Source of the DNA: Peribacillus acanthi
GTDB lineage: Bacteria; Bacillota; Bacilli; Bacillales; DSM-1321
Direction: 5' to 3'
Assembly (NCBI RefSeq): GCF_003073175.1
Contig: NZ_QBBX01000015.1
Location: 1-24,000 of the forward strand
DNA length: 24,000 bases
Shown: positions 984 through 18,177 of the stretch, piece after piece
Numbering within the stretch: the first letter of the stretch is position 1
Layout: each line of letters begins with the position of its first letter
Position numbers and translations under genes: made by a program
The notes under the pieces: model-generated
Seen by the model: only the letters and a program-made list of their open reading frames with translations
Database searches by the model: none
What the model was told of the DNA's origin: nothing

Positions 984-3688
984 ATAGGTAAGGGTTTGAA
1001 GTTATCGCTCCCTTTTCCCCCTGCTCACACCGTACGTGAGACTTTCATCTCATACGGCGTTCCAACTAAACCAATTTATTCTTTCTATGTATTAAGCAGA
1101 CGAGTGCTGTTTTTCCAATGTTAGATTATTTCATTTTGACATCTTAATCGAAGTTTATTTACTTTTTCTTTTTGCTTAGAGTTAAGCTTTAAAGAGGCTA
1201 GAAGAGTTTCAATTTTAACCTTATCTTTTAGATGAATCAGTTGATGAATAGCTTTATCAACAATAATCAAATTAGAATAGCTATCATCTTTTGAAAGGTG
1301 AAATGGGGTAATGTGATGACAATGCCATTCATTAATCCCTAACTCTTCTTCTAATATGGCACATTTACCATATTGGGCAATGAACTTACTGATCCTGTTG
1401 TCATTATATTCAATTGATCGACTTGGAATGTAGTTTCTCATGATGTAAGAAAGCATAGTTTTATCAATTGCCTTCAAACTATTGTGTATTCTTGCTCTAC
1501 CTTCGGTAGTATAGTTACAAGTCTGTTGGGAAAAACAAAGTGTGTTTTTCCACCGTTGTGCATGGATAGGCACAAAAACCATTCCTTGTATCTTGAATAG
1601 TTTTGCCTTGTAACCCTTATACCTTTTCTGTAAGGTCTTAGTCATATCATGAAAAATTGCCTCTGTTCTAATATTCTTCAGTTGATTATATAACGTTCTG
1701 CGTAAATGAGAGTTTAACTCATTAAGATTAATTGTGATTTGAGTAGCGACAGAGTAATAATTTTGAATCCCCATGACTACAGTATTGAAATTCCAAACAG
1801 TCTGTATGCTCGGCTTTTTCTTGACTACTTTTATGGCTTCTTTAATCTTTTGGAATGCATGTCCTTTCGCCTTTTTGGACATATCAGACCTAGCTACATA
1901 GCCAAATCTTGTTTTTCCTTTTCTAATTACTTTTATGGAAAAACCAAGAAACTCGGAAGAGTTCTTCTTTAAGTTAATAACCCTAGATTTCTCTTCACTT
2001 GTTTCTAGATGTAATCTGTTTTTCAAAAAGTCTTTCACTGCATAATTTATTCTAATTGCCTGTGACCTTGTTCGGCACATTAATTTAAAATCGTCCGCAT
2101 AGCGGACGATAAAGCACTCTTTCAAAGCTGTTTTCTTTAGGAACTGATACTTACTTCCATTGGTTGAGTATGTATATTTACTTTTAAACGTTTCCCATTG
2201 GTCACTGACCCACCAATCCAATTCATTTAATACAATGTTGGATAATAAAGGAGACAGAATTCCTCCTTGCGGGGTTCCTCTGCATGGGATACCTTCTCCT
2301 TCTATCTCTGCTTTCAAAAGTCTAGATATAATAGAAAGAAGTGGTTTATCCTTAATACCAAGTGACCATATTTGTTTTAGTAATTTACTATGATTCACGT
2401 TGTCAAAGAAACCTTTTATATCTACATCGACACAATGGTAAAGTCCAGCTTGATTGATAAGAAATTCAAGCCTGGTTTTGGCATGATGAGTGCTGCGATT
2501 CGGTCTGAATCCATAACTATGTTTATGGAATTTAGCTTCACAAATTGGCTCTAGGATTTGAAGAATACATTGTTGAAAGATTCTATCCCATATCGTTGGA
2601 ATCCCCAGAGGTCTAGTTTTCCCTTGTCCTTTTGGGATGAAAACACGCCTTACTGTTTGTGGTTCATACCATTTGAACATGACTTGAACCTTCGCTACCA
2701 CATCTTCCACTGATAAGTGAAGAATATCTTTAATAGTTAACTTATCTGTTCCCGCAGTTTTGCTACCCGAGTTTCGTTTAATGTTTCGGTAGGCAAGTCG
2801 TATATTATCTTCAGAACTCATTAAATCCGTTAAGTTATAGAATTGGTAACCACTGACACTTTGAGCGTACAATCTGTCAAAACAATCTTGCATATTGTAA
2901 TACTCGGCATGTCTCAGTTTCTTCCGTTTCAATAAGTCGGCAACTCCTTTCGGAGTTAAACCTCTTTTAGTCTCACGAGAACCTTATTAATCGTTTAAGA
3001 ACTGTCTTACATGGTTGAATAAATCTTCATTAGTCTAGTGGCTATCCCTCCATGTGGATTAGACATTTCATTGGTACTGTGCCACCACTTTCACTGATAC
3101 AAAAGCAAGTTATGCAGTAACTACTATTATTAATGGTTTCCTTGCCACCGTTTCATTAGAAGTAAGTCCTCCACGTTATCAGCTTACAACGTTGAATTAT
3201 ATCTATTATGGAATGAACTTAGGTGCTTCCTTTAAGCCTGTTAGCATTCATACGCCTGTAACGTATCATGGATTTTCATATTAGCTATTTTTACTCATCC
3301 ACATCCAACCTCACAATTTGGTGATATACACATTTCTATGTATCGCAGTTATAGACCCGTACATTCAGAAGTTCGTCAGTTTAACCATTTCTTTTTGGTT
3401 TATTCACATTCTCACCATATTCATTCAACTCAAGCATCATGATTTACACCACCCCCGCGGGTAGGCTTTCGTCAGCCGAACTGGTACGGTAAATTCTCAC
3501 GCCTTTTCGCCGAGCTTATAACACTATCATTCTTACTAAATCCAGTGCTATTCGACTAAGAGAGAACCCTTCAAGGCGTTACCCCATCATTTGATTCTTC
3601 GATATAATCCTTCAGTTCCGAGAGGAACTGTCTAGCTTTTACCAGAGTGATGTGACCACCCTCCATTTAGACTAGAAACATTTCGCAC
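984..3688 (-). mobile_element. complete group II intron (about 2.7 kb) with ORF in domain IV
   Basis: The 5' end reads GTGCGAAATG (reverse complement of 3679-3688), matching the GUGYG consensus. A 34-nt domain V lies at 1027-1060 (ACGCCGTATGAGAT-GAAA-GTCTCACGTACGGTGT, with AC bulge and GAAA tetraloop). A domain VI-like helix with a bulged A ends ...CCTAT near 984 (+/- 5 nt). The intron segment GGTTAAACTG (reverse complement of 3377-3386, about 300 nt from the 5' end) is complementary to the last 10 nt of the 5' exon, CAGTTTAACT, giving an EBS1/IBS1 pairing with one G-U. Confidence 0.88.
1121..2932 (-). CDS. ltrA: group II intron reverse transcriptase / maturase with C-terminal HNH endonuclease domain
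   Basis: 603 aa. RT motifs are present (RPLGIPTIWDRIFQQ, HSYGFRPNRS, DIKGFFDNVNH, GTPQGGILSPLLSNI, YADDF), followed by a maturase/X region and an HNH-like C-terminus (WHCHHITP...NLIIVDKAIHQLIH). Confidence 0.95.
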   Translation of the reverse strand: MKRKKLRHAEYYNMQDCFDRLYAQSVSGYQFYNLTDLMSSEDNIRLAYRNIKRNSGSKTAGTDKLTIKDILHLSVEDVVAKVQVMFKWYEPQTVRRVFIPKGQGKTRPLGIPTIWDRIFQQCILQILEPICEAKFHKHSYGFRPNRSTHHAKTRLEFLINQAGLYHCVDVDIKGFFDNVNHSKLLKQIWSLGIKDKPLLSIISRLLKAEIEGEGIPCRGTPQGGILSPLLSNIVLNELDWWVSDQWETFKSKYTYSTNGSKYQFLKKTALKECFIVRYADDFKLMCRTRSQAIRINYAVKDFLKNRLHLETSEEKSRVINLKKNSSEFLGFSIKVIRKGKTRFGYVARSDMSKKAKGHAFQKIKEAIKVVKKKPSIQTVWNFNTVVMGIQNYYSVATQITINLNELNSHLRRTLYNQLKNIRTEAIFHDMTKTLQKRYKGYKAKLFKIQGMVFVPIHAQRWKNTLCFSQQTCNYTTEGRARIHNSLKAIDKTMLSYIMRNYIPSRSIEYNDNRISKFIAQYGKCAILEEELGINEWHCHHITPFHLSKDDSYSNLIIVDKAIHQLIHLKDKVKIETLLASLKLNSKQKEKVNKLRLRCQNEII

Positions 3689-3694
3689 AGTTAA

Positions 3695-3717
3695 ACTGCC
3701 CCGTTTCTACAATAGAA
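3695..3717 (-). repeat. intergenic motif copy B (ACTGCCCCGTTTCTACAATAGAA on + strand), abutting the intron 5' end
   Basis: It has the same core as copies A, C1 and C2. On the minus strand the motif ends ...ACGGGGCAGTTTAACT, immediately followed by the intron GTGCG. Confidence 0.6.
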
Positions 3718-3825
3718 GCTCCTTATCGAAACCCCAGTTACTTTCAGTACATTTGTTCACAATATTATATTTCACTTTTTGAATTTATGCCTAAAAGCTC
3801 TACGTTAATGATAAATGTTAATATA

Positions 3826-4701
3826 TTATCCCATTACATCTTTAAGACGTTTATTTTGTCTCCTAAGAACTAACCAAAATATTAAAAGAACACTAAATAA
3901 AGTAAATAAAAGTATCGGTGCCTGAAAAATACTCCAAGTGTTTGGTCCGTAATAAGTTAATTGGTGATGTTTCTCAACAGTGTGTTCATACGAATTTTTG
4001 TATTCATATTGAATGACCCACAGTTTATTCGCCATCACAACAGTTCCTAAATCATAGCCACTAGGAGTAATGGGCTCATTCTTTCTAAGTATTCCTTCGT
4101 TCCCAATAACGGTGTCGGCTTTCTTATATTCAATAGGATAGATCGTTGTAGGCTTCTGTTTTACAGAAGCATTTTCCTTTAACCAATCCTCTATATCTGC
4201 TGCTGAAAAAACAGCTAACAAATTAAGTTTTTCATTATACTTTTTAAAAATAGTAAGAAGTTGTTTTTCTTCTTTTTCAGTCACTTCTGTTGAGGATCCA
4301 AGAATATGAAATACATCATACATAATGGCATCTTTTTCTTTGTCTACTACTTCGAACTCAGATACTTCTTCATTATACTCACTAAATTTTATTATCGAAT
4401 GAGTTAGAAAAATGAATCCAAACAGCAAGGAGAAAAGTGTAGACAGGAATAAATATTTCGTCAGTTTTTTTTGTTCATTGAAGAATCTGGATACTTTTTG
4501 GAAGGGTCTCTTTACTTCCACTTTATACACTTCATCTATCTCAACGGAAATATCAACATCATTTTTCATATTTTCTAATACTTCTCTACATTTTTTACAA
4601 GTATTTATGTGTTCCTCAATAAAATGTATACTATCTTGGCTACACAAATGATCAATATAAGATGGCAGTAAATCTCTCACTATATTGCATTTATTGCCCA
4701 T
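3826..4701 (-). CDS. membrane anti-sigma factor (zinc-finger ZAS-type N-terminus)
   Basis: 291 aa. The start overlaps the sigma-factor stop by 11 nt. An HxxxCxxC motif (HINTCKKC) sits near the N-terminus. A TM helix (LFLSTLFSLLFGFIFL) follows at about residue 85, then an extracytoplasmic region of about 170 aa and a second C-terminal hydrophobic helix (ILLFTLFSVLLIFWLVL). Confidence 0.7.
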   Translation of the reverse strand: MGNKCNIVRDLLPSYIDHLCSQDSIHFIEEHINTCKKCREVLENMKNDVDISVEIDEVYKVEVKRPFQKVSRFFNEQKKLTKYLFLSTLFSLLFGFIFLTHSIIKFSEYNEEVSEFEVVDKEKDAIMYDVFHILGSSTEVTEKEEKQLLTIFKKYNEKLNLLAVFSAADIEDWLKENASVKQKPTTIYPIEYKKADTVIGNEGILRKNEPITPSGYDLGTVVMANKLWVIQYEYKNSYEHTVEKHHQLTYYGPNTWSIFQAPILLFTLFSVLLIFWLVLRRQNKRLKDVMG

Positions 4702-5179
4702 TGTTATCCTTACCCCTTTCCCTTAATTTCATCTTAGCCCTATAAAAAGTAACTCTCGCCCAGTTTTCATTTTTCAGTTGTATTTCTCCTATTTCTTTGA
4801 AACTTAGATCACCTAAGATTCTTAAAAGAAAAACCTCTTTATAAGGTTCTTCAAGTAAGTGTATTATTCTATATAGAGCAATTTTATCTTCCGAATGAAT
4901 AAGTTTAGCTTCAGGAGAAGTATGTAATGTGTCATCTTGGAACATATCCCTTTGCTGTTTTTTATTACGTTCCAAGTACTTATAATAGGAGTGCTTTGCT
5001 ATTTGACATAGCCAAACTGACATTTTACATTCACCATTATATCTATCAATGGATTTTACAGCTTGATAGAAGGTTTCTTGCGTTAGTTCTTCTGATAAAT
5101 CTGAGTTGTGGCAAAGACACATTAGATATTTGAATACTTCTTCAGCATAATTGCAATAAATTTCATCTAGTTCTCCCAA
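4691..5179 (-). CDS. ECF-type RNA polymerase sigma-70 family factor
   Basis: 162 aa. It has region 2 (ELTQETFYQAVKSIDRY...WLCQIAKHSYYKYLER) and a region 4 HTH (LSFKEIGEIQLKNENWARVTFYRAKMKLRE). The start is TTG, 7 nt after AAAGGAGG. Confidence 0.9.
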   Translation of the reverse strand: MGELDEIYCNYAEEVFKYLMCLCHNSDLSEELTQETFYQAVKSIDRYNGECKMSVWLCQIAKHSYYKYLERNKKQQRDMFQDDTLHTSPEAKLIHSEDKIALYRIIHLLEEPYKEVFLLRILGDLSFKEIGEIQLKNENWARVTFYRAKMKLRERGKDNNGQ

Positions 5180-5341
5180 GCCTTTTCCTCCTTTCGTCTA
5201 TATATCCGATTTAAGCCAATTTCGTTACAAAGAATCTATTAATTTTTATAAATTTTTTTTATGGCAATAGAAAACCACCAAACAAAATGGCGGCTTAAGT
5301 ATTTTACATTCAACAATATTATTAAAATACCTGCTATTAAA

Positions 5342-5364
5342 CCTGCCCCGTTAGCTTAGTAAGG
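5342..5364 (-). repeat. intergenic motif copy C1 (CCTGCCCCGTTAGCTTAGTAAGG on + strand)
   Basis: 17/23 identical to copy A. On the minus strand it lies just downstream of the tniQ terminator and about 165 nt upstream of the sigma-factor start. Confidence 0.6.
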
Positions 5365-5371
5365 ATTTCAA

Positions 5372-5405
5372 CAAAAAAAAGCGATAAACCCTCATGGATT
5401 ATCGC
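5372..5405 (-). terminator. rho-independent terminator after the tnsAB-tnsC-tniQ operon
   Basis: On the minus strand: GCGATAA-TCCATGAGGGT-TTATCGC followed by TTTTTTTT. Confidence 0.7.
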
Positions 5406-5424
5406 CACCGTTAGTTAAATAACA
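5402..5424 (-). repeat. intergenic motif copy C2 (TCGCCACCGTTAGTTAAATAACA on + strand)
   Basis: A degenerate copy 60 bp from C1 in the same orientation. It shares CCGTTAG-T-A-TAA and overlaps the 3' arm of the terminator stem. Confidence 0.45.
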
Positions 5425-5539
5425 TACTTGAGACCAGCAGGTCACTATCATTTAATTAATGTCGTTACACTTCGGTTTGCAGCAATAGTGCACCTAGACA
5501 CCCAAAGTACCCTACGATTACGAGGATTAAAAACCAACA

Positions 5540-7048
5540 TTATTTATAACCTAATAAAGCTAATTCTCCTTTCCAAACCTTCCTTATTTCTGGATCCAAT
5601 AAATAATTTGGATTGGATAATTTTTTCCTTAATGCTTTATCACTTGGATAAATACCATTTTTATGTAAATCTAAAATAACTTCTTTTAATTCTTTTTTTA
5701 TGTTTTCAGATTTATTAGTATTTAGCTTTTTTACATAACTTCTACGCTGATCGATGAGTTTCTTTGATAGTTCTGGGCAATAATATTTTGCTATAGCTTC
5801 TGATATTCCAAAATCTTTGGAAAACTGATACAAACTTACTGGTGGTTCCATGTCTAAAGCAACTAGTAAGTTCCGTTTTATCGCTTCCTTCTTCTGCTTT
5901 TCTAATTCTTTTTTATTTTTTAAGTTATTTTTATTAATCTCCTCACACAATTCAGGAAAATACTTCTTTGCTGTCATTATGTTAAAGCTTTTTGCTTCAC
6001 AGAGTTTTTTAAGACTCTTATAGTAATTATTCTTTATTTCCTCCCTAAATTCTTTTTCCATTTCATTCAAATTAAATACTCGCTTTCTATTAATCACAGT
6101 CTTTTTGATATCTTTTATTTCAAGATTTAAATCATCTTTTAAACTATTAGCAATCAATTCATAGATTGATAGATTAATTTGATTATAGATTTTAAATATA
6201 CAATCGATAGAAGGCTTACTTTTATTACTAATCCATTGTTGCATTAAAGTAGGATGCAAACCTAAGAAATTACCAAATTCATTGATACTACGAAAATTGT
6301 TAACATCCATGATTTTTTTAAGTATATATCCTATTCGTTGTTTAGTAGGATTTGTGTTTAAATTCTGGCCTTTAGCAATTAATGTCTTGAAGGTGTCTAA
6401 TAAGAATTGTTGATATTTTAAATTGTCAACATTGGTAGTTTGACTTTTATAACCTAACCAATTTAAACAGTACTGACAATGACCAACAATAAAGTTAGCA
6501 TGTAAGAAGTTCAGTTTCTTTCCACATATTAGACAACTATCTTCTAAAAGTACCTGATGCTTGTCACATATGTTGATCCCTTTAATGTACCAGATTAGTG
6601 GTTCATAAATTTCACTACCATTATTTTTTGCTTCATCTAAACAATTAGGACACCATTTCCTAGATTCTCCTATGACATTATTCGAAAATAGACCCGACCA
6701 TGAATTCATCGTTAAGAAAATTAAGTCGTTTCTAGTTGTTAACTCTTCTAAGGCAGAAACATATTCAAGACTAATTGAACTATTTCCATTAATGTACTTA
6801 GTTTTTGGACCAATGCTGCCATTCATAAAGGAATTTTTTCGGCTTTCTGTTTTAATAAAAGGAATAAAAGTTTTGCATACCAATGTAGTTAAATTCATAC
6901 TATGACATTCTGCTAACCTAGAAATATAACTGGTTAAACTTTCTACATAAGGAGTACCCATGCCAATAGGTTCTAAGTTATATAATTTACTCCTTGGAGG
7001 TACATTTATCTCGTCCAAATCAAAGTCAACATAATTAACTGGAATCAT
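5540..7048 (-). CDS. tniQ: TniQ/TnsD-like transposition target-selector protein (copy 1)
   Basis: 502 aa. The N-terminal TniQ-type region has Cys/His zinc motifs (WCPNCLDE...CDKH...CLICGKK...HCQYC). A long helical C-terminal half resembles TnsD. It is the last gene of the tns operon. The N-terminal ~200 aa are clearly homologous to ORF 11774-13039. Confidence 0.85.
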   Translation of the reverse strand: MIPVNYVDFDLDEINVPPRSKLYNLEPIGMGTPYVESLTSYISRLAECHSMNLTTLVCKTFIPFIKTESRKNSFMNGSIGPKTKYINGNSSISLEYVSALEELTTRNDLIFLTMNSWSGLFSNNVIGESRKWCPNCLDEAKNNGSEIYEPLIWYIKGINICDKHQVLLEDSCLICGKKLNFLHANFIVGHCQYCLNWLGYKSQTTNVDNLKYQQFLLDTFKTLIAKGQNLNTNPTKQRIGYILKKIMDVNNFRSINEFGNFLGLHPTLMQQWISNKSKPSIDCIFKIYNQINLSIYELIANSLKDDLNLEIKDIKKTVINRKRVFNLNEMEKEFREEIKNNYYKSLKKLCEAKSFNIMTAKKYFPELCEEINKNNLKNKKELEKQKKEAIKRNLLVALDMEPPVSLYQFSKDFGISEAIAKYYCPELSKKLIDQRRSYVKKLNTNKSENIKKELKEVILDLHKNGIYPSDKALRKKLSNPNYLLDPEIRKVWKGELALLGYK

Positions 7049-7093
7049 ATTTGTCCCCCCACTTTTTTCAACCGTGGGACTGATTACATATTT

Positions 7094-8212
7094 TTAAAAA
7101 TCAGTCCCTGTCTTATCCCTTTTTGGTTTCCTCTCTCCAGGCTTCCTATTAGTGTTCTTTTTCGGTTTTTCCTCTTCATCTTCTTGATCCAACTTTAACC
7201 AAGCATCGAGCTTCCGTTCCTTCTCATCTCTTTTTTCAGTTAGATTATTTTCTCCTGTAGTAATTTCTAATGCCATTGTGTATGCTTGATCAATTGTTGG
7301 TTCAAATTTTATAAAATCACTGATTGTTAAAGTTTTAGTTCCCTCATCAGATTTCATTTTATAATGGTAGGTATCGTACAACCAATCCCTAAGAGTACCG
7401 ACACATCCTATCGTGTGTTTATAAAAATATTTCCATTCATCAGTAAGATTAGGTTCTTGGTGCAAAGGAAATGCCTTTTGAAAAACCCAAAGAACATTTT
7501 TGAAAGCATCCATATCCTCTTTTTTTTGCGAATTATACCTTGGAAAATGAATATCATTTGTCCTTCTTCCTAATTGGCCATTTATATTTCTAAAACTTTG
7601 TAACTCATATGTTCCAAACAAAATTATTGGGATCCCAAATTTTGAAGCTAATGATTTTATTGCGTCCATATGATTTCTTAATCCTTTTGAAGTGCCTACC
7701 TTAGTCATATGTTGAGCTTCATCTATTAAAATAATTTTTACTTTTCGGCATCTAATTGCATTTTCCAGGGCCTTACGTAACTTCCTCTTTGTTTTTTCGT
7801 TTGGATTATTCGGTACTTCTACACCAATCTCATTTAAGGGCAATCTCTTTTGATCAATTAAAATGTCCCCAAGTTCATCTAATGACTCAGAATAAAAATT
7901 AATCCAGTCAAACTTGCCATCTTCATTGGCGAATGCTTCTACGGCTAAAATTGGAATCAAACCTAAGTCCTTTTTCATTTCCTCGTCGTACCTTCTTAGA
8001 TATTCATTCCTTACTTTTTTAAATAAAGTAGATTTACCTACACCACTTGGACCATAGACCAATAAGACTTTTTTATCTGCAACTTCAATTTTATCCATTA
8101 AATCATTATAAGAATTAACTAGTGTTGGATGAGCAACACTTTTCTTTTTAAAGTAATTGATTCTGTCATCAACTGATTGGAACAATATTTCTTTTGGAAA
8201 ATTTTTATCCAT
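7094..8212 (-). CDS. tnsC: TnsC/TniB-like AAA+ ATPase transposition regulator
   Basis: 372 aa with Walker A GPSGVGKST and Walker B ILIDEAQH. The start ATG overlaps the upstream stop (TAATG). It sits between the transposase and tniQ. Confidence 0.85.
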   Translation of the reverse strand: MDKNFPKEILFQSVDDRINYFKKKSVAHPTLVNSYNDLMDKIEVADKKVLLVYGPSGVGKSTLFKKVRNEYLRRYDEEMKKDLGLIPILAVEAFANEDGKFDWINFYSESLDELGDILIDQKRLPLNEIGVEVPNNPNEKTKRKLRKALENAIRCRKVKIILIDEAQHMTKVGTSKGLRNHMDAIKSLASKFGIPIILFGTYELQSFRNINGQLGRRTNDIHFPRYNSQKKEDMDAFKNVLWVFQKAFPLHQEPNLTDEWKYFYKHTIGCVGTLRDWLYDTYHYKMKSDEGTKTLTISDFIKFEPTIDQAYTMALEITTGENNLTEKRDEKERKLDAWLKLDQEDEEEKPKKNTNRKPGERKPKRDKTGTDF

Positions 8213-11187
8213 TAGAAAAACTCCCCATACATTTCGAATTGTGAATTATTTTCGGTTTTTTTATGTTCGGTTTTAGTCGGTGAAGTAACTTTATTAGTTT
8301 TTGATGTAGGTTTTACTTCTTCATAATCAATATGATTATAATTAGAATTTTTGCTTTTACCTCCATCAATTACCCTCAATGACCTCTTTAGAGCTTCATC
8401 TTTCAACCTTTGAGTTTCCAATAGTTCATGCGATTCTGCTTTGGCCAAAAATTTTGCTAATTCAGAGGCTGAAACTCCATTAATTTTTTCTTTCGTGGTT
8501 TCTTTCTTTCTCCTCTTTATTTCTGCGGTAGCAAGTTGTATTTCCTTCGCAGATTTCCCTTCGAACTCCAACTCATATTGTGAATGAAGTGTTACCCAGT
8601 AATTTCCAACATAAGCATATGCCTTACTATAATCAAAGGGGTCATACCTTACAGGGATTTGTTTTCCCTCAACCGATGGATTGTTCAACTCATATGAATT
8701 ATAATAGCAGTTATTAATTTTTACTCCCTGGCCTGGTTGAACTTTAGCTGTCTCTTTGGTTGTTGTTGGGAGAGTAAGCATCTCAAAGTTTGCATCATAC
8801 CTAATATATGTTTGCTTTCTTTCACCAGTTTTTCTTACATTTTGTTGATAAGCATCTCGAGGACTTTGATCAAGACTAGTGTGAGGCTGTTGATCATAAA
8901 TCTCATAAAACCAATTGTATAAATATTCATATAATACTTCTAAAGTCCAGATAGCTAAATTACGAGGGTCAAATTCTTTTGTCATTTGACGAACTAATTT
9001 GGATAATTGAGTGTTGCCTGCTAAATTGTTAATAAACACGGTATTTGTTGTGCCAAACAGTCTCTCACAAACAGCTCCAAACTTTGGTTTAGCACCTGGT
9101 CGTATTTTTTTATGACAATCGTTGCTTGCTAGCAAAGTATCAAAATATGTACTTTGGAAATCCTTTCCTCCATCTACTACAAGAGTTTTTGGAAGTCGGG
9201 AGTATTTTCTTACACATTCCCTAATCGTATTCATGCAAGACCTATATGATGGGGCATCATAGGTTAAATAAAAAGCTAATACTCTTCGTGAAAAGGCATC
9301 TATTAGTAAAGTTAACCACGGTTTCCCCAATTTTTTCTGAGTCTTAGAGCAGATAAGTTGAATGTCAAGTTCGGTATGGTCTATATGTGCAATTTCAAAA
9401 GGTCTGGTACCATGTCTAGGTGTCGTAAGTGATAATTCCAAAAAAAATGGCTCTTTATCATATGCAGCTTTTGGTCCCCGTCGTTTTAAATCTTGCTCAT
9501 AGCTGGAACGCTTCTCAATTGCCTTAAAGAATGTTTTGTTGCTAGGAGGATCAAACCCGTTTTCAATACACTTATCTCTAAATGAATTGTAAACTGAAGA
9601 TTTATTTCGTTGTTTTTTATCCTCATATACTTCAGTTACATATTTTTCCATTAATTTAATCACTTTGCTGTTTAAGCGCTCTGTTTTATTCCCTTTTTTA
9701 TGATTTTTTGAAATAAACGCATAAAAGCCTCTTCCGTATTCTTTTTCGGCTTTTTTGAATTTTTGGTTCCAATGTCTTAAAGTCCTTGGTGAAACACCTA
9801 CAGACTCGCCATTCATATGAAGTTTGTACTTATTGTACTTCTCATTAGCTTCGGCTAAATCCTCTGGACTTGCTGTCATAATAATATCCATTAAGTCTGA
9901 CTCTTCATATCCCGTTGACTTTTCATTATCTAAAGATTTAATACTACCCATCTTGATTAACTCTTCGAATGCTTTTAACGGTAATGGAATAATCTTTTCA
10001 GCTTCATCTAAAAGAGTGATTTCTGTCTCTCCCATATTTATCACTGTCCATAGATTTCCATTCCAAAGAATCTTTTTACCGACTTCCACATTCACCACAT
10101 TATCGAGATTGCCATTTCCTTTGTTGCTTTTTGAATCTTCAGCATTCAATATTGCCTCGGCAGTTTCCTTATTAATATACAAAGGAAACTTGTTGAAATT
10201 TATAATGAGAAAACGCTCAAGATCGACATATATTTCACCCAGTACAATTAATTTGTAAATATCATCAGCAGTAAACGCAGGATTACTAACGGATAACAAA
10301 TCATCCAAAGTAATATTTGGTGCAGATTGTATATAACTTAGAATAATGTTTCGACTAGTTAAAGAAACCTTAGGATTTTCTTCTAAAAGATAATCTTCTA
10401 AAAAACGAATATTATTTTGTAAATTCCAGTTAATTTCTTTAGAGCATCGAATCCTAAAAGAAAGTCCCTTTTTCTTTGCAAACTCCTCTACTGGTGGACA
10501 TCTCCATTGTCCATTTTCATCCAGACAATATCTCTCTGGTGATTCTTCAATTAACTTGGATAGCTCTTTCTCCGTTTTCCACTCTTCCCAACCGATAAAG
10601 TTCTCTGAAATGACAAAAAAATCAGCTGTATATCTATGACCTCTATTTTTACCGTCTTTAATATAATTAATGGTAAACCCTTCAGGTTGGTCGTAATACT
10701 CATAAACGTTTTTATCAAACTCCATTGAATAGATTCCACTCAGTTCCAGTGTATGGCTTTCGAATTGAATGGTTAATCCCATCTTTTTGCTAGAATAGAA
10801 CCCTCTTACATTACCCTTCCCACTTCGAACTCTACGTGATGGTTCTGAATTTCTGATATTGTTATTGATATAAATTTTAGTTTCATCAATGATTCCCTTA
10901 TCTTTGCAAAACAGATCAAAATCATTAATCACATATGATTCCCCTTTCTTTAAAAAGTCTAGGAAGCTTAATCTACTTATCATCCATGTATGCATATATA
11001 TATAATTAGTATTTAAAGGATCGTATTTCCCCATAATCCTTTCAGCATTCGCACTGGGGCTAAGATTCTCATTTGAGTGGTAGTAATTATTGTTTACTAT
11101 TACTACTTTACCAAGAATTATTTCAGTCTCCACCTGAGGTAAAGTTAACAAAATGAATTTATCATTACACAAAAATCTCTTTGGCAA
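8212..11187 (-). CDS. tnsB: TnsA-TnsB fusion transposase (TnsA-type endonuclease domain + DDE Mu/Tn7-type transposase)
   Basis: A single uninterrupted ORF. The TnsA-like nuclease core is FESHTLE...YTADFFV...WEEWK, followed by a TnsA C-terminal-like segment (INWNLQNNIRFLEDYL). HTH regions follow, then the DDE core HIDHTELD...VVDGGKDF...CERLFGT and a Mu-type C-terminal barrel (VRYDPFDYSKAYAY). The first ~85 codons of the open frame are homologous to a TnsB C-terminus, i.e. remnant sequence. The true start is therefore more likely the GTG at 10932 (AAAGGGG SD 8 nt upstream) or the ATG at 10983/10995. Confidence 0.85.
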   Translation of the reverse strand: MPKRFLCNDKFILLTLPQVETEIILGKVVIVNNNYYHSNENLSPSANAERIMGKYDPLNTNYIYMHTWMISRLSFLDFLKKGESYVINDFDLFCKDKGIIDETKIYINNNIRNSEPSRRVRSGKGNVRGFYSSKKMGLTIQFESHTLELSGIYSMEFDKNVYEYYDQPEGFTINYIKDGKNRGHRYTADFFVISENFIGWEEWKTEKELSKLIEESPERYCLDENGQWRCPPVEEFAKKKGLSFRIRCSKEINWNLQNNIRFLEDYLLEENPKVSLTSRNIILSYIQSAPNITLDDLLSVSNPAFTADDIYKLIVLGEIYVDLERFLIINFNKFPLYINKETAEAILNAEDSKSNKGNGNLDNVVNVEVGKKILWNGNLWTVINMGETEITLLDEAEKIIPLPLKAFEELIKMGSIKSLDNEKSTGYEESDLMDIIMTASPEDLAEANEKYNKYKLHMNGESVGVSPRTLRHWNQKFKKAEKEYGRGFYAFISKNHKKGNKTERLNSKVIKLMEKYVTEVYEDKKQRNKSSVYNSFRDKCIENGFDPPSNKTFFKAIEKRSSYEQDLKRRGPKAAYDKEPFFLELSLTTPRHGTRPFEIAHIDHTELDIQLICSKTQKKLGKPWLTLLIDAFSRRVLAFYLTYDAPSYRSCMNTIRECVRKYSRLPKTLVVDGGKDFQSTYFDTLLASNDCHKKIRPGAKPKFGAVCERLFGTTNTVFINNLAGNTQLSKLVRQMTKEFDPRNLAIWTLEVLYEYLYNWFYEIYDQQPHTSLDQSPRDAYQQNVRKTGERKQTYIRYDANFEMLTLPTTTKETAKVQPGQGVKINNCYYNSYELNNPSVEGKQIPVRYDPFDYSKAYAYVGNYWVTLHSQYELEFEGKSAKEIQLATAEIKRRKKETTKEKINGVSASELAKFLAKAESHELLETQRLKDEALKRSLRVIDGGKSKNSNYNHIDYEEVKPTSKTNKVTSPTKTEHKKTENNSQFEMYGEFF

Positions 11188-11777
11188 TCTCCTTGAATTA
11201 AAGATTCCTCTAGGACTCTACCCCAAAAATAGAATTTCTTGTTGATTGTAAACGTCATACAATATAGTTGAAACTGTTTTTTCTAGAATGTTTAAATAGC
11301 ATGTTGGTGCACAACGTTCTTTCCTTAAATACTTGTCCTGATTCAAGTTATTGAAATGGAATTTTACTAAATTAGTTAACAATCTCTCGTAAATTGAAAA
11401 TTCATTTTTTGGAATAGTTTACTTTTAATATCTAAAGCAACTATTAATTTGTCTAAATTTTCACTCTGAAACCTTTTAGCATCACATTTCAGTAAAGTTT
11501 TAGGGATCATTGAATTTTTTCTTACAGACTCTCTTAGAGTCATCATGATTGATACATAGGATGGGGGCTCAATTGACAAGTAATATGCAAGAACCCTTCT
11601 AGAGTAAACATCAATTAAGAGAGTCAACCACGGTCTCCCAAGATAATTCTTGGTAACTGGGCAGATTACTTCTATATCAAGGCAAATGTGGTCTATCACG
11701 GCTTTTTCCATTGGTTTTTGACTAAACATTGCTCCATAAAGAAATGAAACTGAGGCTTTTCGATTTTTGAAAGTCAT
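10935..11777 (-). pseudogene. decayed tnsB (DDE transposase) remnant from a second, divergent Tn7-like element
   Basis: The ORF 11376-11777 product aligns to the catalytic core of the intact transposase (VIDHICLD...RPWLTLLIDVYSRRVLAYYL...KCDAKRF versus HIDHTELD...KPWLTLLIDAFSRRVLAFYL...VVDGGKDF). Homology continues in another frame with internal deletions and an in-frame TAG (YDVYNQQEILFLG*SPRGIF versus YEIYDQQPHTSLDQSPRDAY). It then runs into the open frame of the tnsAB ORF (FILLTLP...NNNYYHS...KYDP versus FEMLTLP...NNCYYNS...RYDP). Confidence 0.75.
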
Positions 11778-13039
11778 ATTGATAACTCCTTTTTTAATTT
11801 ATTCCACTTTTCTTGTAATGTTTTTTCCTTAAGAAATCCGGAACCTAATATACCTTCTACTTGTCTTCTACTGGGATATATCCCTTTTTGAAGCAATATA
11901 CGAAATGCTTCCTCAAGTCTTGTTATTTTTAAAAGTGCATTTTCTTCCCTTTTTGTTTGTTGATATGAAATATAAATTTCCTTAATTTTTTCACACTCTG
12001 TTTTATACATTCTTGAAAGCAACTTTCTGTCACATCCAAGTTTCCTTGCAAGAGTACTCAGAGATATTGGTTCTTTATCAGCAATGACTTTAATTAAAGT
12101 ATTTCTTATCACATCATGGTTGTGTTCTTCCTTTGCTTTTGCGGAACTATTGGATATTCCAATATCCTTAACGCTCTGCTCTTTTTGAAGGAACTCGGTT
12201 ATTGTAATACCAAAGCCTTTGCATAGTTGAAGCAGATAGTCAATACTTGGGATGCTTTCTCCAGACAACCATAATACAAACGTTGTTTTAGGTATTTTTA
12301 GTTGCTTAGCAGCTCTAATAGGAGAACAATCAAACATTTCTTTTACATAAAAATTGATCGATTCACGTAAAGAGATACTAGCTACATCTAAATGGCTTTG
12401 AGCCAATAGTTCACCTATCAGTAATACATTTGATAAAAGTTCATCTACATTACATAATGATTCTTTATAAGTTGAAAAAGAACCTAACCATTGTCCACAT
12501 CGCGAACAATAACCAGGGAATGTGTTCCTATTTATTATTGGAACTGATTTATTGCAATTTCCACAAATATCCAAAATCGGTCTTTTATGTTTCAAACATA
12601 TAAAAACGGTTTGAAAGCTCCATATCAAAGGATCATAAATAACCTCACCATTTTCCCTTGACTCCTCATAACAAATTGGACACCATGATTTGGTTTTCTT
12701 TAATAACCCTCTACTCGTAAGGATATTTGACCATTTTTGTAGTGTTGTTAAACATAAATCAGATCTTCCTGTCAATTTATTTGTTAGGTCACTAAACTCA
12801 CAAGCTAATTTACCTACCCCATTAATACCAATTGCCGAATCAAAAAAGCCATTTCCACCATGTTTTGAAACTTTTACTAAATATTCTTTTTTTAACAATG
12901 GTGAGTAAATTCTCGAAATTAGACTACCTGTCGCGACACAATGCGCTTCAGCTAACCTTGAAATATAACTGGTTAACGACTCAACAAATGGAGTTCCAAT
13001 CCCTATCGGATCAAGGTTATACAAAATACTTCTTTCCAT
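11774..13039 (-). CDS. tniQ: TniQ/TnsD-like target-selector protein (copy 2, orphan, apparently intact)
   Basis: 421 aa. It has the same N-terminal signature as copy 1 (LYNLDPIGIGTPFVESLTSYISRLAE; WCPICYEE...CLKH...CGNCNK...YCSRC) and a similar C-terminal end (KGIYPSRRQ). An SD-like GTGGGGGT lies 8 nt upstream of the ATG. The stop overlaps the start of the tnsB remnant by 4 nt. Confidence 0.85.
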   Translation of the reverse strand: MERSILYNLDPIGIGTPFVESLTSYISRLAEAHCVATGSLISRIYSPLLKKEYLVKVSKHGGNGFFDSAIGINGVGKLACEFSDLTNKLTGRSDLCLTTLQKWSNILTSRGLLKKTKSWCPICYEESRENGEVIYDPLIWSFQTVFICLKHKRPILDICGNCNKSVPIINRNTFPGYCSRCGQWLGSFSTYKESLCNVDELLSNVLLIGELLAQSHLDVASISLRESINFYVKEMFDCSPIRAAKQLKIPKTTFVLWLSGESIPSIDYLLQLCKGFGITITEFLQKEQSVKDIGISNSSAKAKEEHNHDVIRNTLIKVIADKEPISLSTLARKLGCDRKLLSRMYKTECEKIKEIYISYQQTKREENALLKITRLEEAFRILLQKGIYPSRRQVEGILGSGFLKEKTLQEKWNKLKKELSI

Positions 13040-13262
13040 TATTTTCTACCCCCACTTTCGGGGGTATTATTTGTAAAAAAAAGTATTCTATACATTAAAT
13101 AAAAATATAGGGTATTAAGTGAAGATTAATCCTTCTGTTTCAAGTTGATAATCCCTAAACTCGTGGAAAACATTCTTCCCAGTACCAGCAAAACAAAAAT
13201 TAGAAATATTTTTTGCAATGTCGGTTTCAATTTAGAACTCTAATAAAATCGTTATATCTAAA

Positions 13263-13286
13263 ACTGTCCCCCTTTTTGATTAAACA
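13263..13286 (-). repeat. intergenic motif copy D (degenerate; ACTGTCCCCCTTTTTGATTAAACA on + strand)
   Basis: A weaker match with indels to the CTGCCCCGTT family. Like C1, on the minus strand it directly follows a terminator plus a TTTTTTGTTG tract. Confidence 0.35.
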
Positions 13287-13346
13287 ACAAAAAAGCACCA
13301 CTAATAAAACGATGCAGGTACGTAACCCATCGTATATTAGCGGTGC
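13286..13346 (-). terminator. long-hairpin rho-independent terminator just inside the transposon right end
   Basis: On the minus strand: GCACCGCTAATA...(inner CGATG/CATCG stem)...TATTAGTGGTGC followed by TTTTTTGTTGTTT. It is oriented to stop read-through coming from ssrA. Confidence 0.55.
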
Positions 13347-13399
13347 TTCCGCATATTTGAGTTATTAAGTTGTTTAAGTAAATTATTAATAAAGCTAGT

Positions 13400-13483
13400 C
13401 TTACATATTTTGAAGCATATTCTTGCCATAAGTTTTTTGAAGCATAACGTTGCCAAAACGGCAAGTTTATGGTTCAAGTCACA
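13400..13483 (-). repeat. candidate Tn7-like right-end: terminal TGTGAC plus three copies of an 18-19 bp motif
   Basis: Read inward on the minus strand, the sequence is TGTGAC-TTGAACCATAAACTTGCC-GTTTT-GGCAACGTTATGCTTCAA-(9)-GGCAAGAATATGCTTCAA. On the plus strand the motif TTGAAGCATAnnnTTGCCA lies at 13410-13428 and 13437-13455, with an inverted copy at 13460-13477. The terminus starts with TGTG, as Tn7 ends do. Confidence 0.45.
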
Positions 13484-13514
13484 AAAAATAAACAATTAAC
13501 CACCAAATTATGTA

Positions 13515-13876
13515 TGGTGGAGACGGTGGGAGTCGAACCCACGTCCAGAAACATCGCCACTTAAGCTTCTACGAGTGTAGTCGACATATTAGCATTTCGC
13601 TAACTCTTATGCCTATCGACAGGCGTCGGAGTAGCTAGTCTGGTTGTTCTCTTCCTTCATCCTCAGACGGTGGAATCCGGCGTAGCCCACTTAGAGTGAG
13701 TCCCTTACCCTACCACATGGGCAATGGAGGGAGGAACCGCAATCAACTGTTATTAAGCAGCGAAAGCGAAGTTGTTGTTTTGTTTGCCAGTTATTGGCTT
13801 TGACGTTTTAACGAGGCCGATCCCCTCGACTCGCAACCTAAGCTCGAACTATCCCTGTCGAATCCGTAACGTCCCC
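13515..13876 (-). ncRNA. ssrA: tmRNA (transfer-messenger RNA)
   Basis: The 5' end is GGGGACGTTACGGATTCGACAGGGATAG and the 3' end is GGACGTGGGTTCGACTCCCACCGTCTCCACCA. The internal tag ORF is GGC AAA CAA AAC AAC AAC TTC GCT TTC GCT GCT TAA TAA, encoding (A)GKQNNNFAFAA. It is collinear with the Bacillus subtilis ssrA I recall, and lies next to smpB. Confidence 0.96.
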
Positions 13877-13952
13877 ATGATAAGAATGGAGCGATAGGAT
13901 GATGAATAGCAAGCAAAGTGCTGTGCATATTCAGTTGTCATCTACAAGAGTT

Positions 13953-13980
13953 ATTATAACACATCTGACATAAGATGCAA
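13953..13980 (-). promoter_or_regulatory. putative sigma-A promoter of ssrA
   Basis: On the minus strand: TTGCAT-16 nt-TATAAT with a TGT extended -10. It lies about 75 nt upstream of the mature tmRNA 5' end, implying a processed leader. Confidence 0.45.
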
Positions 13981-14020
13981 TTGTAACATCCTGTAAACCA
14001 ATGTAAGGAATGGAAATATC

Positions 14021-14497
14021 CTATGTTTTCTGACGATCACGGAAGGCACGTTCAATTTCACGCTTCGCTTCTTTTTTCTTTAAGTCCTCACGTTTGTCAT
14101 ATTGTTTTTTACCCTTACCAAGACCAATTAAAACCTTAGCAAATCCATTTTTCAAATACATTTTTAACGGGACAAGCGTATATCCTGCTTCTTTTGTTTC
14201 ACCAATTAGCTTATTGATCTCTCTACGGTGTAATAATAACTTTCTCGTACGTAAAGGATCATGATTATAACGATTCCCTTGCTCGTACGGACTAACGTGC
14301 ATATTATAAAGGTACAGCTCACCATTATGAATTCTAGCATACGAATCCTTTAAATTCGCTTTTCCTTTTCGAATGGACTTAATTTCAGTCCCTTGAAGAA
14401 CAATTCCCGCTTCATATGTTTCTTCAATAAAAAAGTCATGGTAGGCTTTTTTATTTTGTGCAACTTGTTTGCCTTCTCCTTTTGGCATCTTACCCAC
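14021..14497 (-). CDS. smpB: SsrA-binding protein SmpB
   Basis: The product shows strong SmpB-family similarity ([16 protein letters not shown]). The likely true start is the ATG at 14488 (MPKGEGK), 8 nt after GGGAG. Confidence 0.95.
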
Positions 14498-14568
14498 TCC
14501 CTGAACTGATTGTCTCTATGATAGCATGAGAGCCCGAATTTTTAATACTCAGGCTCTCTTTATTCCAT

Positions 14569-16971
14569 TTATCTCTTCTTTGGTTTCTTTTTACGTTTAG
14601 CGGCGGGGGCATTTTCAAAGAATTTTTTCTTCTTTCTTGGTTTTCGTTCAGAAGAGTTGCCACCATTAGCGTCATCTTTCCGACGATCTTGACCTTGGCC
14701 ACGACTTTGACCGCTACCTTGGCTTTTCCCTCTGCCGTTACGATCACTACTCTTTGAACCACCACGACTTGATCTGTCACCCGATCTTGTTTTGAAAACA
14801 CGGGTTTCATTCGTTTCGCGTCGACGATTATTCTTCATTCCAGCTACTTCAAAGTCAATTGCACGTTCGTCTTTATTAACGTTTGTGACTCTGACTGTAA
14901 TTTCATCCCCAATTCGAAATACCTTTGCTGTACGTTCCCCAATCATCGCCAAATGACGCTCATCAAATCGATAATAATCATCATTCATGGCACTTACATG
15001 GATTAAACCTTCAATTGTGTTTTCCAATTCGACGAACATACCAAAGTTTGTAACTGAGCTGATAACGCCATCGTACTCCTGACCAATTTTGTCCAACATA
15101 TACTCCGCTTTTTTCAGATCGTCTGTCTCACGCTCAGCATCGACAGCACGTCTTTCTCTGTTGGATGTATGGTCGGCAATATCAGGTAATAGTGCATTCC
15201 ATTTTGCTCTAGTTTGTTCATCCACTTTTCCTTCAATTAAGTATGTCCGAATCAATCTATGAACAATTAAATCCGGATAACGGCGGATTGGGGATGTGAA
15301 GTGTGTATAGAATTCCGTTGAAAGTCCGAAGTGACCAAGACTGTCCGGATAATATTTAGCTTGTTGCATGGAACGTAACAAGACTGTAGAAATAACCGTT
15401 TCTTCAGGTTTCCCTTCTACTGCCTCGATGATTTCCTGTAACGCCCGTGGATGGACGTCGTTGGCTTTCCCTTTTACCACATAACCAAAATTCGTAATGA
15501 ATTCAAAGAATCGCTGTAGTTTTTCTTCCTTTGGATCTTCATGGATACGATAAATGAAAGGTACATCCATCCAATGGAAATGCTCTGCAACCGTTTCGTT
15601 AGCAACTAGCATGAATTCCTCAATTAATTTCTCTGCTACAGAACGTTCTCGTAATACAACATCTGTTGGTTCGCCATCTTCATTAACTAGGACCTTCGAT
15701 TCTTTAAAATCAAAGTCGATGGCACCACGATGCATCCTCTTTGAGCGAAGAATGGCTGCTAGCTTTTCCATTTCTTCAAACATTGGAACTATAGGTTCAT
15801 ATTTCTCCCGTAGCTCTTCATCTTTATCTACGAGTATTTTATTGACATCTGAATAAGTCATTCGTTCTGTCGTTTTAATGACACTTTCGAAAATTTCATG
15901 TTTAACGACGGTTCCCGTTTCATCAATTTCCATATCACATGACAGAGTAAATCGGTTCACCTTTGGATTTAAAGAACAAATCCCATTTGATAGACGGTGA
16001 GGAATCATCGGAATCACTCGGTCTACTAAATAAACACTGGTTCCGCGTTCATAAGCTTCCTGGTCAATTGGAGAGCCTTCCTTCACGTAATGGGTCACGT
16101 CTGCTATATGTACACCAAGTTTGTAATTACCGTTTTCTAGTTTCACAACGGTAACAGCATCATCAAGGTCTTTAGCATCCGCACCATCAATCGTGACGAT
16201 AACTTCGTTACGAAGGTCTCTTCTGTTCCCTATATCTTCTTCATTAATGGAATCTGGCACGCTTTGTGCTTGATCAATGACCTCATCCGGAAATTCGAGC
16301 GGCAATCCATGCTGGTGGATGACAGAAAGAATATCTACACCCGGATCATTTTTATGGCCAAGAATTTGGACAACTTCCCCTTCAGCACTCACTCTGCCTT
16401 CAGGATAAGCCGTTAACTTCACGACTACCTTATGCCCTTCAACAGCACCCATAGATGCTGCCTTAGGGATAAAGATGTCATTGACTACCTTTTTATCATC
16501 TGGGATAACAAAGCCGAAATGCTTACTTTCAACATAAGTACCAACGAGTTCAGTCAGACCACGCTCGATAATTTTTTCAATAGTACCTTCACGTCTTGAA
16601 CCTGAGCTTTCAGAAGAAACACGAACGAGAACGATATCTCCGTGCATTGCATTCTTCATGTCTCCAGGTGGGATAAAAATATCATCCATCCCTGGCTCCT
16701 CCGAAAGCACAAATGCAAACCCTTTAGCATGGGCTGACAGTTTTCCTCGAACTAAATTTAATTTTTCCGGAAGACCATAGCGATTGCTTCTTGTTCGAAT
16801 AACAAGTCCCTTTTCTTCCATCTTCACAAGTGCCTTCACAAAGTCTTTAAAGTCAGCAGAATCTTCGATATGCAAAGCTTCCTCTAACTCTTGAACTGAC
16901 ATAGGTTTATATGCTTCTTTTTTCATATATTCAAGAAGCCTATCAATATGGTGTTTCATGTTTTCATCCAT
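14569..16971 (-). CDS. rnr: ribonuclease R
   Basis: 800 aa with an RNB catalytic domain, cold-shock-like N-terminal domains, an S1 domain, and a basic Lys/Arg/Gly/Ser-rich C-terminal tail. AAGGAGGG SD. The conserved secG-est-rnr-smpB-ssrA synteny supports the call. Confidence 0.96.
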
Positions 16972-17016
16972 ATAAAATCCCTCCTTTAGAGGATATATGC
17001 TGTCGGAAGGATTGAA

Positions 17017-17763: not shown

Positions 17764-17894
17764 ATTCTTCTACTCCTTTAAATCTGGTCCTACTTGTTAA
17801 GGTTATATGACTTTATTATGACCCAATTCACCCTAAAATGTGAAATATAGGGCTTTTTAAAAAATTAATCAAACGTTTGATTAATTTAATATCA

Positions 17895-17926
17895 ATATAA
17901 AAACCCGGCAATTACGCCGGGTTTTT
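17895..17926 (-). terminator. rho-independent terminator after secG
   Basis: On the minus strand: AAACCCGGC-GTAATT-GCCGGGTTT followed by TTATATT. Confidence 0.7.
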
Positions 17927-17943
17927 GCTTTACTGATAAGCTA

Positions 17944-18177
17944 TTAAGCACCGAAGTACGAAACAGCGATTGTTAAAACGAAGAATAATACAGACAATAC
18001 GATTGTTACTCTGTGTAGAACTAAATCGATGCCGCGAGCTTTTTGTTTTCCAAATAGCTGTTCAGCACCACCTGAAATCGCACCAGATAATCCAGCACTC
18101 TTACCAGATTGAAGCAAAACACTAACGATAAGTCCGATACTAACTAATACAAGAAGAACTACTAAAAATGTGTGCAT
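17944..18177 (-). CDS. secG: preprotein translocase subunit SecG
   Basis: The 77-aa product [10 protein letters not shown]...[10 protein letters not shown]... is typical of SecG. GGAGGTG lies 7 nt upstream of the ATG at 18177. The longer ORF reaching 18243 has no SD and adds a non-SecG extension. Confidence 0.9.

Follow-up and report, generated by a model that had tools for sequence, protein, structure and literature searches.

A fused-TnsAB Tn7-like transposon beside the tmRNA gene of Peribacillus acanthi and its proposed homing to ssrA

The element and its insertion site

Analysis of a 24,000-nucleotide stretch of the genome of Peribacillus acanthi (contig NZ_QBBX01000015.1, positions 1 to 24,000; hereafter the window) identified a Tn7-like element situated beside ssrA, the gene for transfer-messenger RNA (tmRNA). 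This element is read as a Tn7-family cut-and-paste transposon with a fused TnsAB protein, and its insertion immediately past ssrA as site-specific and in a single orientation, a reading to which we assign a probability of about 0.8. The observations behind it are the gene content, the structure of the transposon end, a fixed spacing from ssrA in 13 loci, the occurrence of empty sites, the target-site duplication (TSD) of a relative, and homology to TnsAB and TnsD proteins of solved structure. Hallmarks of the Tn7 family were found to be present, namely a DDE transposase of the TnsB type, a TnsA endonuclease, an AAA+ TnsC and two TniQ-family proteins. Pfam searches of the open reading frames (ORFs) placed tniQ1, the tnsA-tnsB fusion, tnsC and tniQ2 on the minus strand, transcribed away from ssrA, and confirmed the gene set and orientation given in an earlier note on this DNA. 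Coordinates are listed in Table 1.

The tmRNA gene was found to end with its 3' CCA at 13515, and the tag peptide of its product was read as GKQNNNFAFAA with ARAGORN. On the minus strand, reading from the CCA, the spacer of 31 bp has the sequence TACATAATTTGGTGGTTAATTGTTTATTTTT, comprising a CCACCA/TGGTGG hairpin and then a run of T residues. The transposon terminus, TGTGACTTGAACCATAAACTTGCC, begins at 13483, 31 bp beyond the CCA. The CCA, the stem-loop, the T-rich tail and the TGTGAC at 13483 had all been pointed out in the earlier note and were confirmed in the sequence. The final 5 bp of the spacer, TTTTT at 13484-13488, are predicted to be the TSD of the window copy.

Within the end, an 18-bp repeat, TTGAAGCATAnnnTTGCC, was found three times, at 13410-13427 and 13437-13454 on the plus strand and at 13460-13477 on the minus strand, the terminal copy being inverted with respect to the two inner ones. 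These repeats are presumed to be TnsB-binding sites. Taken by itself the repeat count is weak evidence (three copies in the window against 0.92 expected, with 10 of 100 shuffled sequences reaching three), the point of weight being that the entire 75-bp end is kept in relatives. A 75-bp profile was built from eight ssrA-adjacent ends and matched the right end of the window at E=1.4e-21, which was classed as a perfect match to the family.

No second transposon end was identified in positions 1-13483 using a pattern, a fuzzy regular expression and the eight-end profile, with 13483 as the sole match. The element extends leftwards past 5540, the left limit of the span given in the earlier note, and its far end lies outside the window. 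From the ends of loci L005 and L006, the inverted far end is predicted to read ...TTGGCAAGATTATG(G/A)TTCAAGTCACA followed by TTTTT, also written as TGTGACTTGAA(C/T)CATAA followed by TTTTT.

Comparison was made with 79 loci around TnsAB relatives, referred to here by L numbers. Among these, ssrA was found with ARAGORN in L001, L011, L064 and L068, and nhmmer with the window tmRNA as query added L002, L004, L007 and L070. All eight of these genomes carry a TGT terminus of identical internal organisation at 27-31 bp past the ssrA CCA (27 bp in L001, L004 and L007; 29 bp in L064 and L070; 30 bp in L002 and L011; 31 bp in L068, as in the window). Four metagenome contigs gave distances of 27 bp (L198), 29 bp (L082), 30 bp (L138) and 31 bp (L142). 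The fixed distance of +27 to +31 from the CCA thus holds in 13 loci including the window, in a single orientation, and the named hosts of these loci include Peribacillus, Cytobacillus, Halalkalibacter and Desulfosporosinus. The proposal of the earlier note that the element homes to ssrA with its right end proximal is thereby strongly supported by 12 further occupied loci with spacings of 27-31 bp. The spacers themselves are unrelated in some loci: L004 carries AAACCATACCATGAATCGCATGACCGC in place of the terminator hairpin, and the Desulfosporosinus locus L070 carries yet another sequence. A constant distance across spacers that are not constant is as expected for a selector that reads ssrA itself.

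Scanning of metagenomes with the 3' end of ssrA yielded nine Bacillaceae-type loci, a small sample, of which four were occupied (L082, L138, L142 and L198) and five were empty (L097, L116, L118, L134 and L169), the latter having the native terminator and then unrelated DNA. The hairpin and T-run of the window spacer are present at these unoccupied sites as well. Among the occupied loci, L138 shows a full layout of RNase R, SmpB, ssrA, the end at +30, approximately 4 kb of cargo, tniQ1, tnsAB, tnsC and tniQ2. Locus L064 contains a complete element of 9.9 kb (8414-18322) with both ends and a 5-bp duplication, TTTTA, on each side. Copies of the proximal-end segment were found beside tRNA genes in cyanobacteria and, in inverse orientation, at the L064 far end; this identifies the segment as a transposon end and excludes the alternative, raised in the earlier note, that 13400-13483 is native sequence.

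In several loci the far end of one element was found to be followed by the proximal end of another, either after 5 bp (L006 4950/4956, L064 18322/18328, L074 15649/15655 and L079 15598/15604) or after 1-3 bp instead (L069 17178/17180, L015 14993/14996, L008 15537/15541 and L078 14726/14730). In the L064 array the 5 bp are the TSD itself. These head-to-tail arrays fit a history in which elements without mutual exclusion inserted repeatedly at a single fixed position. In L001, L011, L070 and L138 the proximal end is separated from tniQ1 by approximately 3.7-6.2 kb of cargo or inserted DNA. For L001, the closest ssrA-linked relative, this interval holds an IS3-type insertion sequence (orfA/orfB, 4533-5890), while that of L011 holds large ORFs resembling defence genes by appearance, alongside an extra TniQ2-like gene. 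The genes found after tniQ2 in the window, L002 and L064 are not tns genes, and in L004 no far end was found after tniQ2. Cargo and stacked elements between ssrA and the tns genes would explain those relatives that have no ssrA within 10 kb.

The ssrA genes of L002, L004 and L007 were found to be interrupted within the T-loop by a group I intron of approximately 285 nt that leaves a 3' exon of 17 nt (~5194-5470, 8026-8310 and ~8029-8313, respectively), with the junction GGGTTCGA / ~285 nt / TCCCACCGTCTCCACCA. The Rfam match to Intron_gpI (31 bits, E=5.7e-6) lies below the gathering threshold. This splitting of the gene is the reason why ARAGORN missed ssrA in these three loci. The intron-form of ssrA has already been documented (PMC11915505).

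The tns genes and their known relatives

The start of TnsAB was assigned to the GTG at 10932 (906 aa), following the annotation and the family consensus, and not to the TTG at 11187 that opens an ORF of 991 aa. The domains Tn7_TnsA-like_N (2.1e-8), TnsA_C, rve and Mu-transpos_C were identified with Pfam on this ORF (8212-11187). The TnsA-type residues E58, D104 and K119 and the DDE residues D518, D587 and E623 (P0001 numbering) were found to be invariant in a 24-sequence alignment; by analogy with TnsA and TnsB of Tn7 we take them to be catalytic. Both sets had been described as intact in the earlier note, which the invariance of these putative catalytic positions across the 24 aligned sequences bears out. 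The translation of TnsC shows a Walker A motif (GPSGVGKS) and a Walker B motif (LIDEAQ).

The closest database protein to TnsAB is a protein of 906 aa from Peribacillus acanthi with 100% identity. Fused relatives were found as 381 database proteins at E<=1e-10, mostly of about 900 aa, in Bacillales, cyanobacteria and other groups, and 259 stretches with TnsAB relatives were confirmed in a collection of species-representative genomes. Both tnsAB fusions and second tniQ genes have been mapped on a TnsC tree by Faure et al. 2023 (PMC10293859). The view of the earlier note that the TnsA-TnsB fusion is uncommon did not stand against these 381 proteins and 259 stretches, the solved structure 9BW1 and that published catalogue.

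Between tniQ1 and tnsAB lies tnsB', a decayed mini-tnsB. Its 5' part corresponds to ORF 11376-11777 (133 aa) and its 3' part, coding for the Mu-transposase C barrel, to the first 85 codons of the 991-aa ORF. Intact homologues were identified in L004 (9947-10759, 271 aa), L007 (9947-) and L001 (9983-10813, 276 aa), encoding a TnsB-like core and a Mu-transposase C-terminal barrel in which the putative catalytic Asp residues are not conserved. For Mu-transpos_C, the L004 protein clears the Pfam cut-off (45.2 bits) and that of L001 falls marginally short of it (21.2 versus 21.7 bits). The gene is intact in these three divergent relatives and broken in the window; it may serve as a regulator without catalytic function or may simply be left over from an older element. 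The idea that tniQ1 and the TnsB fragment are leftovers of an older tandem element was mostly rejected, as no end junction was found before tnsAB and synteny is kept in 27 loci. In L002, however, decayed copies of tnsB and tnsC lie upstream of tniQ1, so that fusion of two elements is a conceivable origin.

No Cas domain was found in any ORF scanned and no CRISPR-like family among the repeats listed, over the 13.4 kb of the element in the window. The clade of the window element also holds the cores of type I-B2 and I-D CRISPR-associated transposons (CASTs). PmcCAST (type I-B2, Peltigera membranacea cyanobiont 210A) shares with it a fused TnsAB (residues 22-864 of the 906 of the window protein align to 9BW1, its nearest solved structure, at E=9.9e-238), a TnsD homologous to TniQ1 over its full length, a TnsC adaptor and homing 3' of a tRNA-like gene, its own attachment gene reportedly being tRNA-Leu. 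The window element differs in having ssrA and not a tRNA gene as target, in its Bacillota host, in the lack of a CRISPR-Cas module in the window, in a second selector beyond tnsC and in a selector gene that precedes tnsAB. The PmcCAST TnsD is the attachment-site binder of a TnsABCD transpososome (structures 9BW1 and 8V32), as described by Wang et al. (PMC12585508). CyCAST (type I-D, Cyanothece PCC 7425) inserts 30-33 nt past a tRNA-Leu gene and requires TnsAB, TnsC and TnsD (Faure et al. 2023, PMC10293859). This distance, shown experimentally for CyCAST, compares with 31 bp past the encoded CCA for the window element, whereas the target gene and the arrangement of the TniQ/TnsD genes differ and Cascade-guided jumping is absent from the window element.

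Tn7 itself uses TnsABC with TnsD to insert at attTn7 downstream of glmS, the selector binding the conserved 3' end of an essential gene, and has a 5-bp TSD and TGT termini. The same logic is seen in the window, with a fixed distance downstream, the right end proximal and tns genes reading away from the attachment gene. In contrast, TnsA and TnsB of Tn7 are separate and its second pathway uses TnsE, not a second TniQ; the attachment gene of the window encodes an RNA, and similarity to Tn7 TnsB is weak (E=4.7e-6). Cyanobacterial TnsAB-TnsC-TnsD elements that target CRISPR arrays or tRNA genes (PMC11837452) resemble the window element in their fused tnsAB, tnsC and tnsD, their minimal content and the frequency of degraded copies, but target CRISPR repeats or tRNAs, with a single selector and no association with ssrA. 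This clade is also represented in the present locus set (e.g. L030, Allocoleopsis).

A direct connection to tRNA homing was found at the transposon ends. In the cyanobacterial and acidobacterial relatives, the 75-bp ssrA-proximal profile gave a full-length match at one end of the element, and the distance between this end and the 3' end of a tRNA gene is 29-32 bp (tRNA-Ala in L032 and L043, tRNA-Gln in L039 and L041, tRNA-Val in L050). Since the same end is found at tRNA genes at the same distance as in CyCAST, ssrA homing is best described as a retargeted tRNA-homing machine acting at the tRNA-like end of tmRNA. The attachment-proximal end of those relatives is located beside tnsD, with genes that read towards the tRNA, whereas in Bacillota it is located beside tniQ1 and the genes read away. 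The tns block of L019-L025, L032, L039, L041, L043 and L048-L050 is inverted relative to the asymmetric ends when compared with the window.

Selector choice, alternative explanations and proposed mechanism

The order tniQ1-tnsAB-tnsC-tniQ2 was found to be kept in 27 Bacillota loci. TniQ1 (residues 2-419) aligns to residues 21-460 of PmcCAST TnsD (8V32/9BW1) at E=2.3e-69 and 238 bits. In a tree of 106 TniQ proteins, Bacillota TniQ1 forms one clade beside a non-Bacillota TnsD/TniQ group, and the TniQ2 proteins of ssrA-linked elements fall into at least three unrelated, distant clades. Identity between the window and L004 is 64% for TnsAB, 58% for TnsC and 59% for TniQ1, and approximately 30% for TniQ2. 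As the constant partner of a constant target, TniQ1 is probably the selector of ssrA, although the Bacillota loci offered no contrasting element with a clearly different attachment site. It is unlikely that TniQ2, or a TniQ1-TniQ2 pair, performs the homing with TniQ1 serving another pathway or a regulatory role. Such an assignment would agree with the canonical Tn7 order, in which the selector follows tnsC as TniQ2 does here, with the matches of TniQ2 to PmcCAST TnsD (E=3.5e-51, 178 bits) and TniQ (E=2.2e-39), and with the finding that TniQ and TnsD of CyCAST affect each other's pathway (Faure 2023, PMC10293859). However, TniQ2 matches TnsD over residues 6-300 only, where TniQ1 matches end to end, and at the identical ssrA position TniQ2 proteins of unrelated clades vary in length (~500, ~445 and ~630-645 aa; individually 502, 444-449 and 627-644 aa). 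A tniQ1-tnsAB-tnsC-tniQ2 block was also observed beside restriction-modification genes on the 282-kb plasmid pBFI_1 of B. cereus 03BB108 (L080, NZ_CP009639.1, 10733-17394), where a search for transposon ends located none; this copy is possibly a product of a second, TniQ2 pathway.

The position of the element might instead reflect a general tendency to insert behind strong terminators or RNA genes with high transcription, and not recognition of the ssrA sequence. In most loci the insertion point does lie directly past the T-run of the ssrA terminator, and relatives use several different tRNA genes. This explanation is nevertheless very improbable, because the spacers of L004, L007, L002 and L070 contain no CCACCA/TGGTGG terminator and the element still lies 27-30 bp from the CCA, because the orientation is invariable, and because the homologous TnsD is a sequence-specific binder of its attachment site according to PMC12585508. 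A classical tyrosine- or serine-integrase island with incidental Tn7-like genes would suit ssrA, which is often an integrase target (Williams 2002, as cited in PMC11837452; PMC11915505). Islands of that kind share with the window element the use of ssrA as a chromosomal landmark behind which they are built, but they integrate by recombination inside the 3' end of ssrA and leave a restored copy of that end as a direct repeat, whereas the window element lies 31 bp beyond an intact gene. No integrase or recombinase domain was identified with Pfam in any ORF scanned between 175 and 13039, and no second copy of the ssrA 3' 25-mer was found, even with 3 mismatches allowed. An integrase together with such a repeat at the distal boundary had been named beforehand in the earlier note as evidence for another origin; neither was found, the distal boundary itself lying outside the window. 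With a boundary that is a TGT transposon end common to tRNA-linked relatives, the chance that the element is an integrase island is minute.

Several points weigh against site-specific insertion by an active transposon. The whole case is computational, and the tree of TniQ proteins, built by neighbour joining, is rough and has long branches. The intron of L002, L004 and L007 interrupts ssrA 17 nt before the gene ends, and still the element is found at +27 to +30; either only the last ~17 nt and the flank are read, or the insertions are older than the intron. These loci constrain how much of ssrA the selector can read. No ssrA was visible in the 10-kb flank of 18 of the 27 Bacillota relatives, which have cargo or other elements upstream, and the link between TniQ1 and ssrA is therefore without a negative control. 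The upstream flanks of these relatives are cargo-like (an ars operon, sigma/anti-sigma pairs and defence genes), and no inverted far-end copy was found in the 2.5 kb that precede tniQ1. For the window copy, both far end and TSD lie outside the window. Some decay is hinted at by the broken tnsB' and by the group II intron in the cargo, and some relatives are fossils: the far end of L001 (16290-16350) is without the terminal GTCACA, this degradation implying that the copy is immobilised, and L082 has a terminus of TAT in place of TGT. It is accordingly conceivable, if rather less probable than the alternative, that the window copy is itself an immobile fossil, which homed to ssrA, later became inactive or was deprived of its far end, and persists as a fixed island. 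The absence of a far end from 13.4 kb would fit such a history, as would the signs of decay just given. Against it, tniQ1, tnsAB, tnsC and tniQ2 are full-length with conserved putative catalytic residues, the right end agrees perfectly with the family profile, and the extra DNA between right end and tniQ1 in relatives makes a far end beyond the window plausible.

For the site-specific insertion that we favour, the following course is proposed. A TnsD-type selector, most likely TniQ1, would bind the DNA of the tRNA-like ssrA 3' end and load the AAA+ adaptor TnsC, which would in turn recruit TnsAB bound to the two asymmetric ends. TnsA and TnsB would then cut the element out and insert it at ~27-31 bp beyond the CCA with its right end facing ssrA, creating a 5-bp duplication and leaving ssrA and its terminator intact. 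A terminator within the right end would shield the tns genes from ssrA read-through, and TniQ2 may act as a swappable second selector for another target. Each newcomer would land at the same coordinate, so that unrelated elements would stack head to tail behind ssrA. It is for DNA binding by TniQ1, the activity of the window copy and the role of TniQ2 that we infer beyond the sequence comparisons. On balance, we lean slightly towards a Bacillota-wide lineage of fused-TnsAB elements in which a tRNA-type TnsD (TniQ1) was retargeted to ssrA, with an exchangeable TniQ2 and, in some members, a dead mini-TnsB that is possibly regulatory.

Attachment sites of the Tn7 family include glmS and tRNA genes, together with comM, parE, ffs, guaC and others, and the choice of attachment site is what separates Tn7 sub-families. 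In full-text literature searches, incomplete in coverage, no paper was found that describes ssrA as the attachment site of a Tn7-type element, which is absence of evidence only. A term for ssrA attachment was likewise absent from Benler 2021, Faure 2023 (PMC10293859), PMC11837452, an archaeal Tn7 preprint and PMC11915505. What is new here is the target specificity and the unusual gene layout within a well-characterised clade; homing to ssrA is no conceptual surprise because tRNA homing in the same clade is already known experimentally and structurally. If the reading is correct, ssrA would serve Tn7 elements as an attachment site in addition to its use by integrases. The ssrA islands of bacilli would then be built by two unrelated integration chemistries, which affects island finders that assume an integrase and a direct repeat. 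They would also offer a natural test case of a tRNA-reading TnsD adapting to the tRNA-like end of tmRNA, intron-split genes included. Confirmation would provide a four-protein, guide-free integration system for a conserved site in Gram-positive hosts, and, should TniQ1, TnsAB and TnsC suffice, a compact protein-only means of integration into a near-universal 'safe harbour' that is left intact in these bacteria.

Regulatory hairpins, cargo and flanking genes

The terminator-like hairpin between the transposon end and tniQ1 was found to be kept, with compensatory changes, in L003, L004 and L005, and probably blocks read-through from ssrA into the element. A second conserved hairpin, CCCCCGAAAGTGGGGG, was observed at 13047-13066, directly before the tniQ1 start codon, and is also present in L003, L004 and L005. 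Together, the two hairpins probably shield the element against transcription from ssrA and regulate the translation of tniQ1.

Table 1. Features of the ssrA-linked element in the window and of its attachment site
Feature	Coordinates	Strand	Evidence and remarks
ssrA (tmRNA gene), intact	13515-13876	minus	ARAGORN and Rfam RF00023, 214.6 bits; proposed attachment gene
Native 31-bp spacer between CCA and transposon end, with ssrA terminator	13484-13514	minus	Sequence and empty sites
Attachment-proximal ('right') transposon end	13410-13483	minus	TGT at 13483-13481, three 18-bp repeats, profile match
Long-stem intrinsic terminator-like hairpin (GGAAGCACCnnTAAT...ATTAnnGGTGC and T-run)	13288-13352	minus	Terminator scan; between end and tniQ1
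tniQ1, 421 aa, TnsD-like, TniQ zinc-finger domain and C-terminal HTH regions	11774-13039	minus	Pfam TniQ, HTH_26, HTH_3
tnsB' pseudogene, decayed mini-tnsB	10933-11777	minus	Weak rve match; intact homologues in relatives
tnsAB, 906 aa, GTG start, TnsA endonuclease and TnsB DDE transposase	8212-10932	minus	Pfam, homology
tnsC, 372 aa, AAA+ TniB-type adaptor/regulator	7094-8212	minus	Pfam TniB 2e-17, AAA_22 1e-16
tniQ2, 502 aa, second TniQ-family selector	5540-7048	minus	Pfam TniQ
Presumed cargo after tniQ2	1-5539	minus	Pfam, Rfam
Extracytoplasmic function (ECF) sigma factor	4691-5179	minus	Pfam
zf-HC2 anti-sigma	3826-4701	minus	Pfam
Group II intron	~978-3615	minus	Rfam group-II-D1D4-5 at 3421-3615, Intron_gpII domain V/VI at 978-1062
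Reverse transcriptase (RT)/HNH ORF inside group II intron	1121-2932	minus	Pfam
Small ORFs	647-910 and 175-576	minus	

An RT ORF related to that of the window intron was observed upstream of tniQ1 in L005. In the presumed cargo, the motif AACGGGGCAG(G/T)TT was found three times on the minus strand (612-634, 3693-3715 and 5340-5362), in intergenic DNA before a gene or the intron, with one copy approximately 160 bp upstream of the ECF sigma gene. These copies may be promoters for the cargo-encoded ECF sigma/anti-sigma pair.

Upstream of ssrA, the gene for SmpB (14021-14497) directly adjoins the tmRNA gene and is followed by that for RNase R (14569-16971). A lysine riboswitch unrelated to the transposon (Rfam RF00168, 110.8 bits) was identified further into the host flank, at 21468-21649 on the minus strand, upstream of the ORF at 20518-21354.

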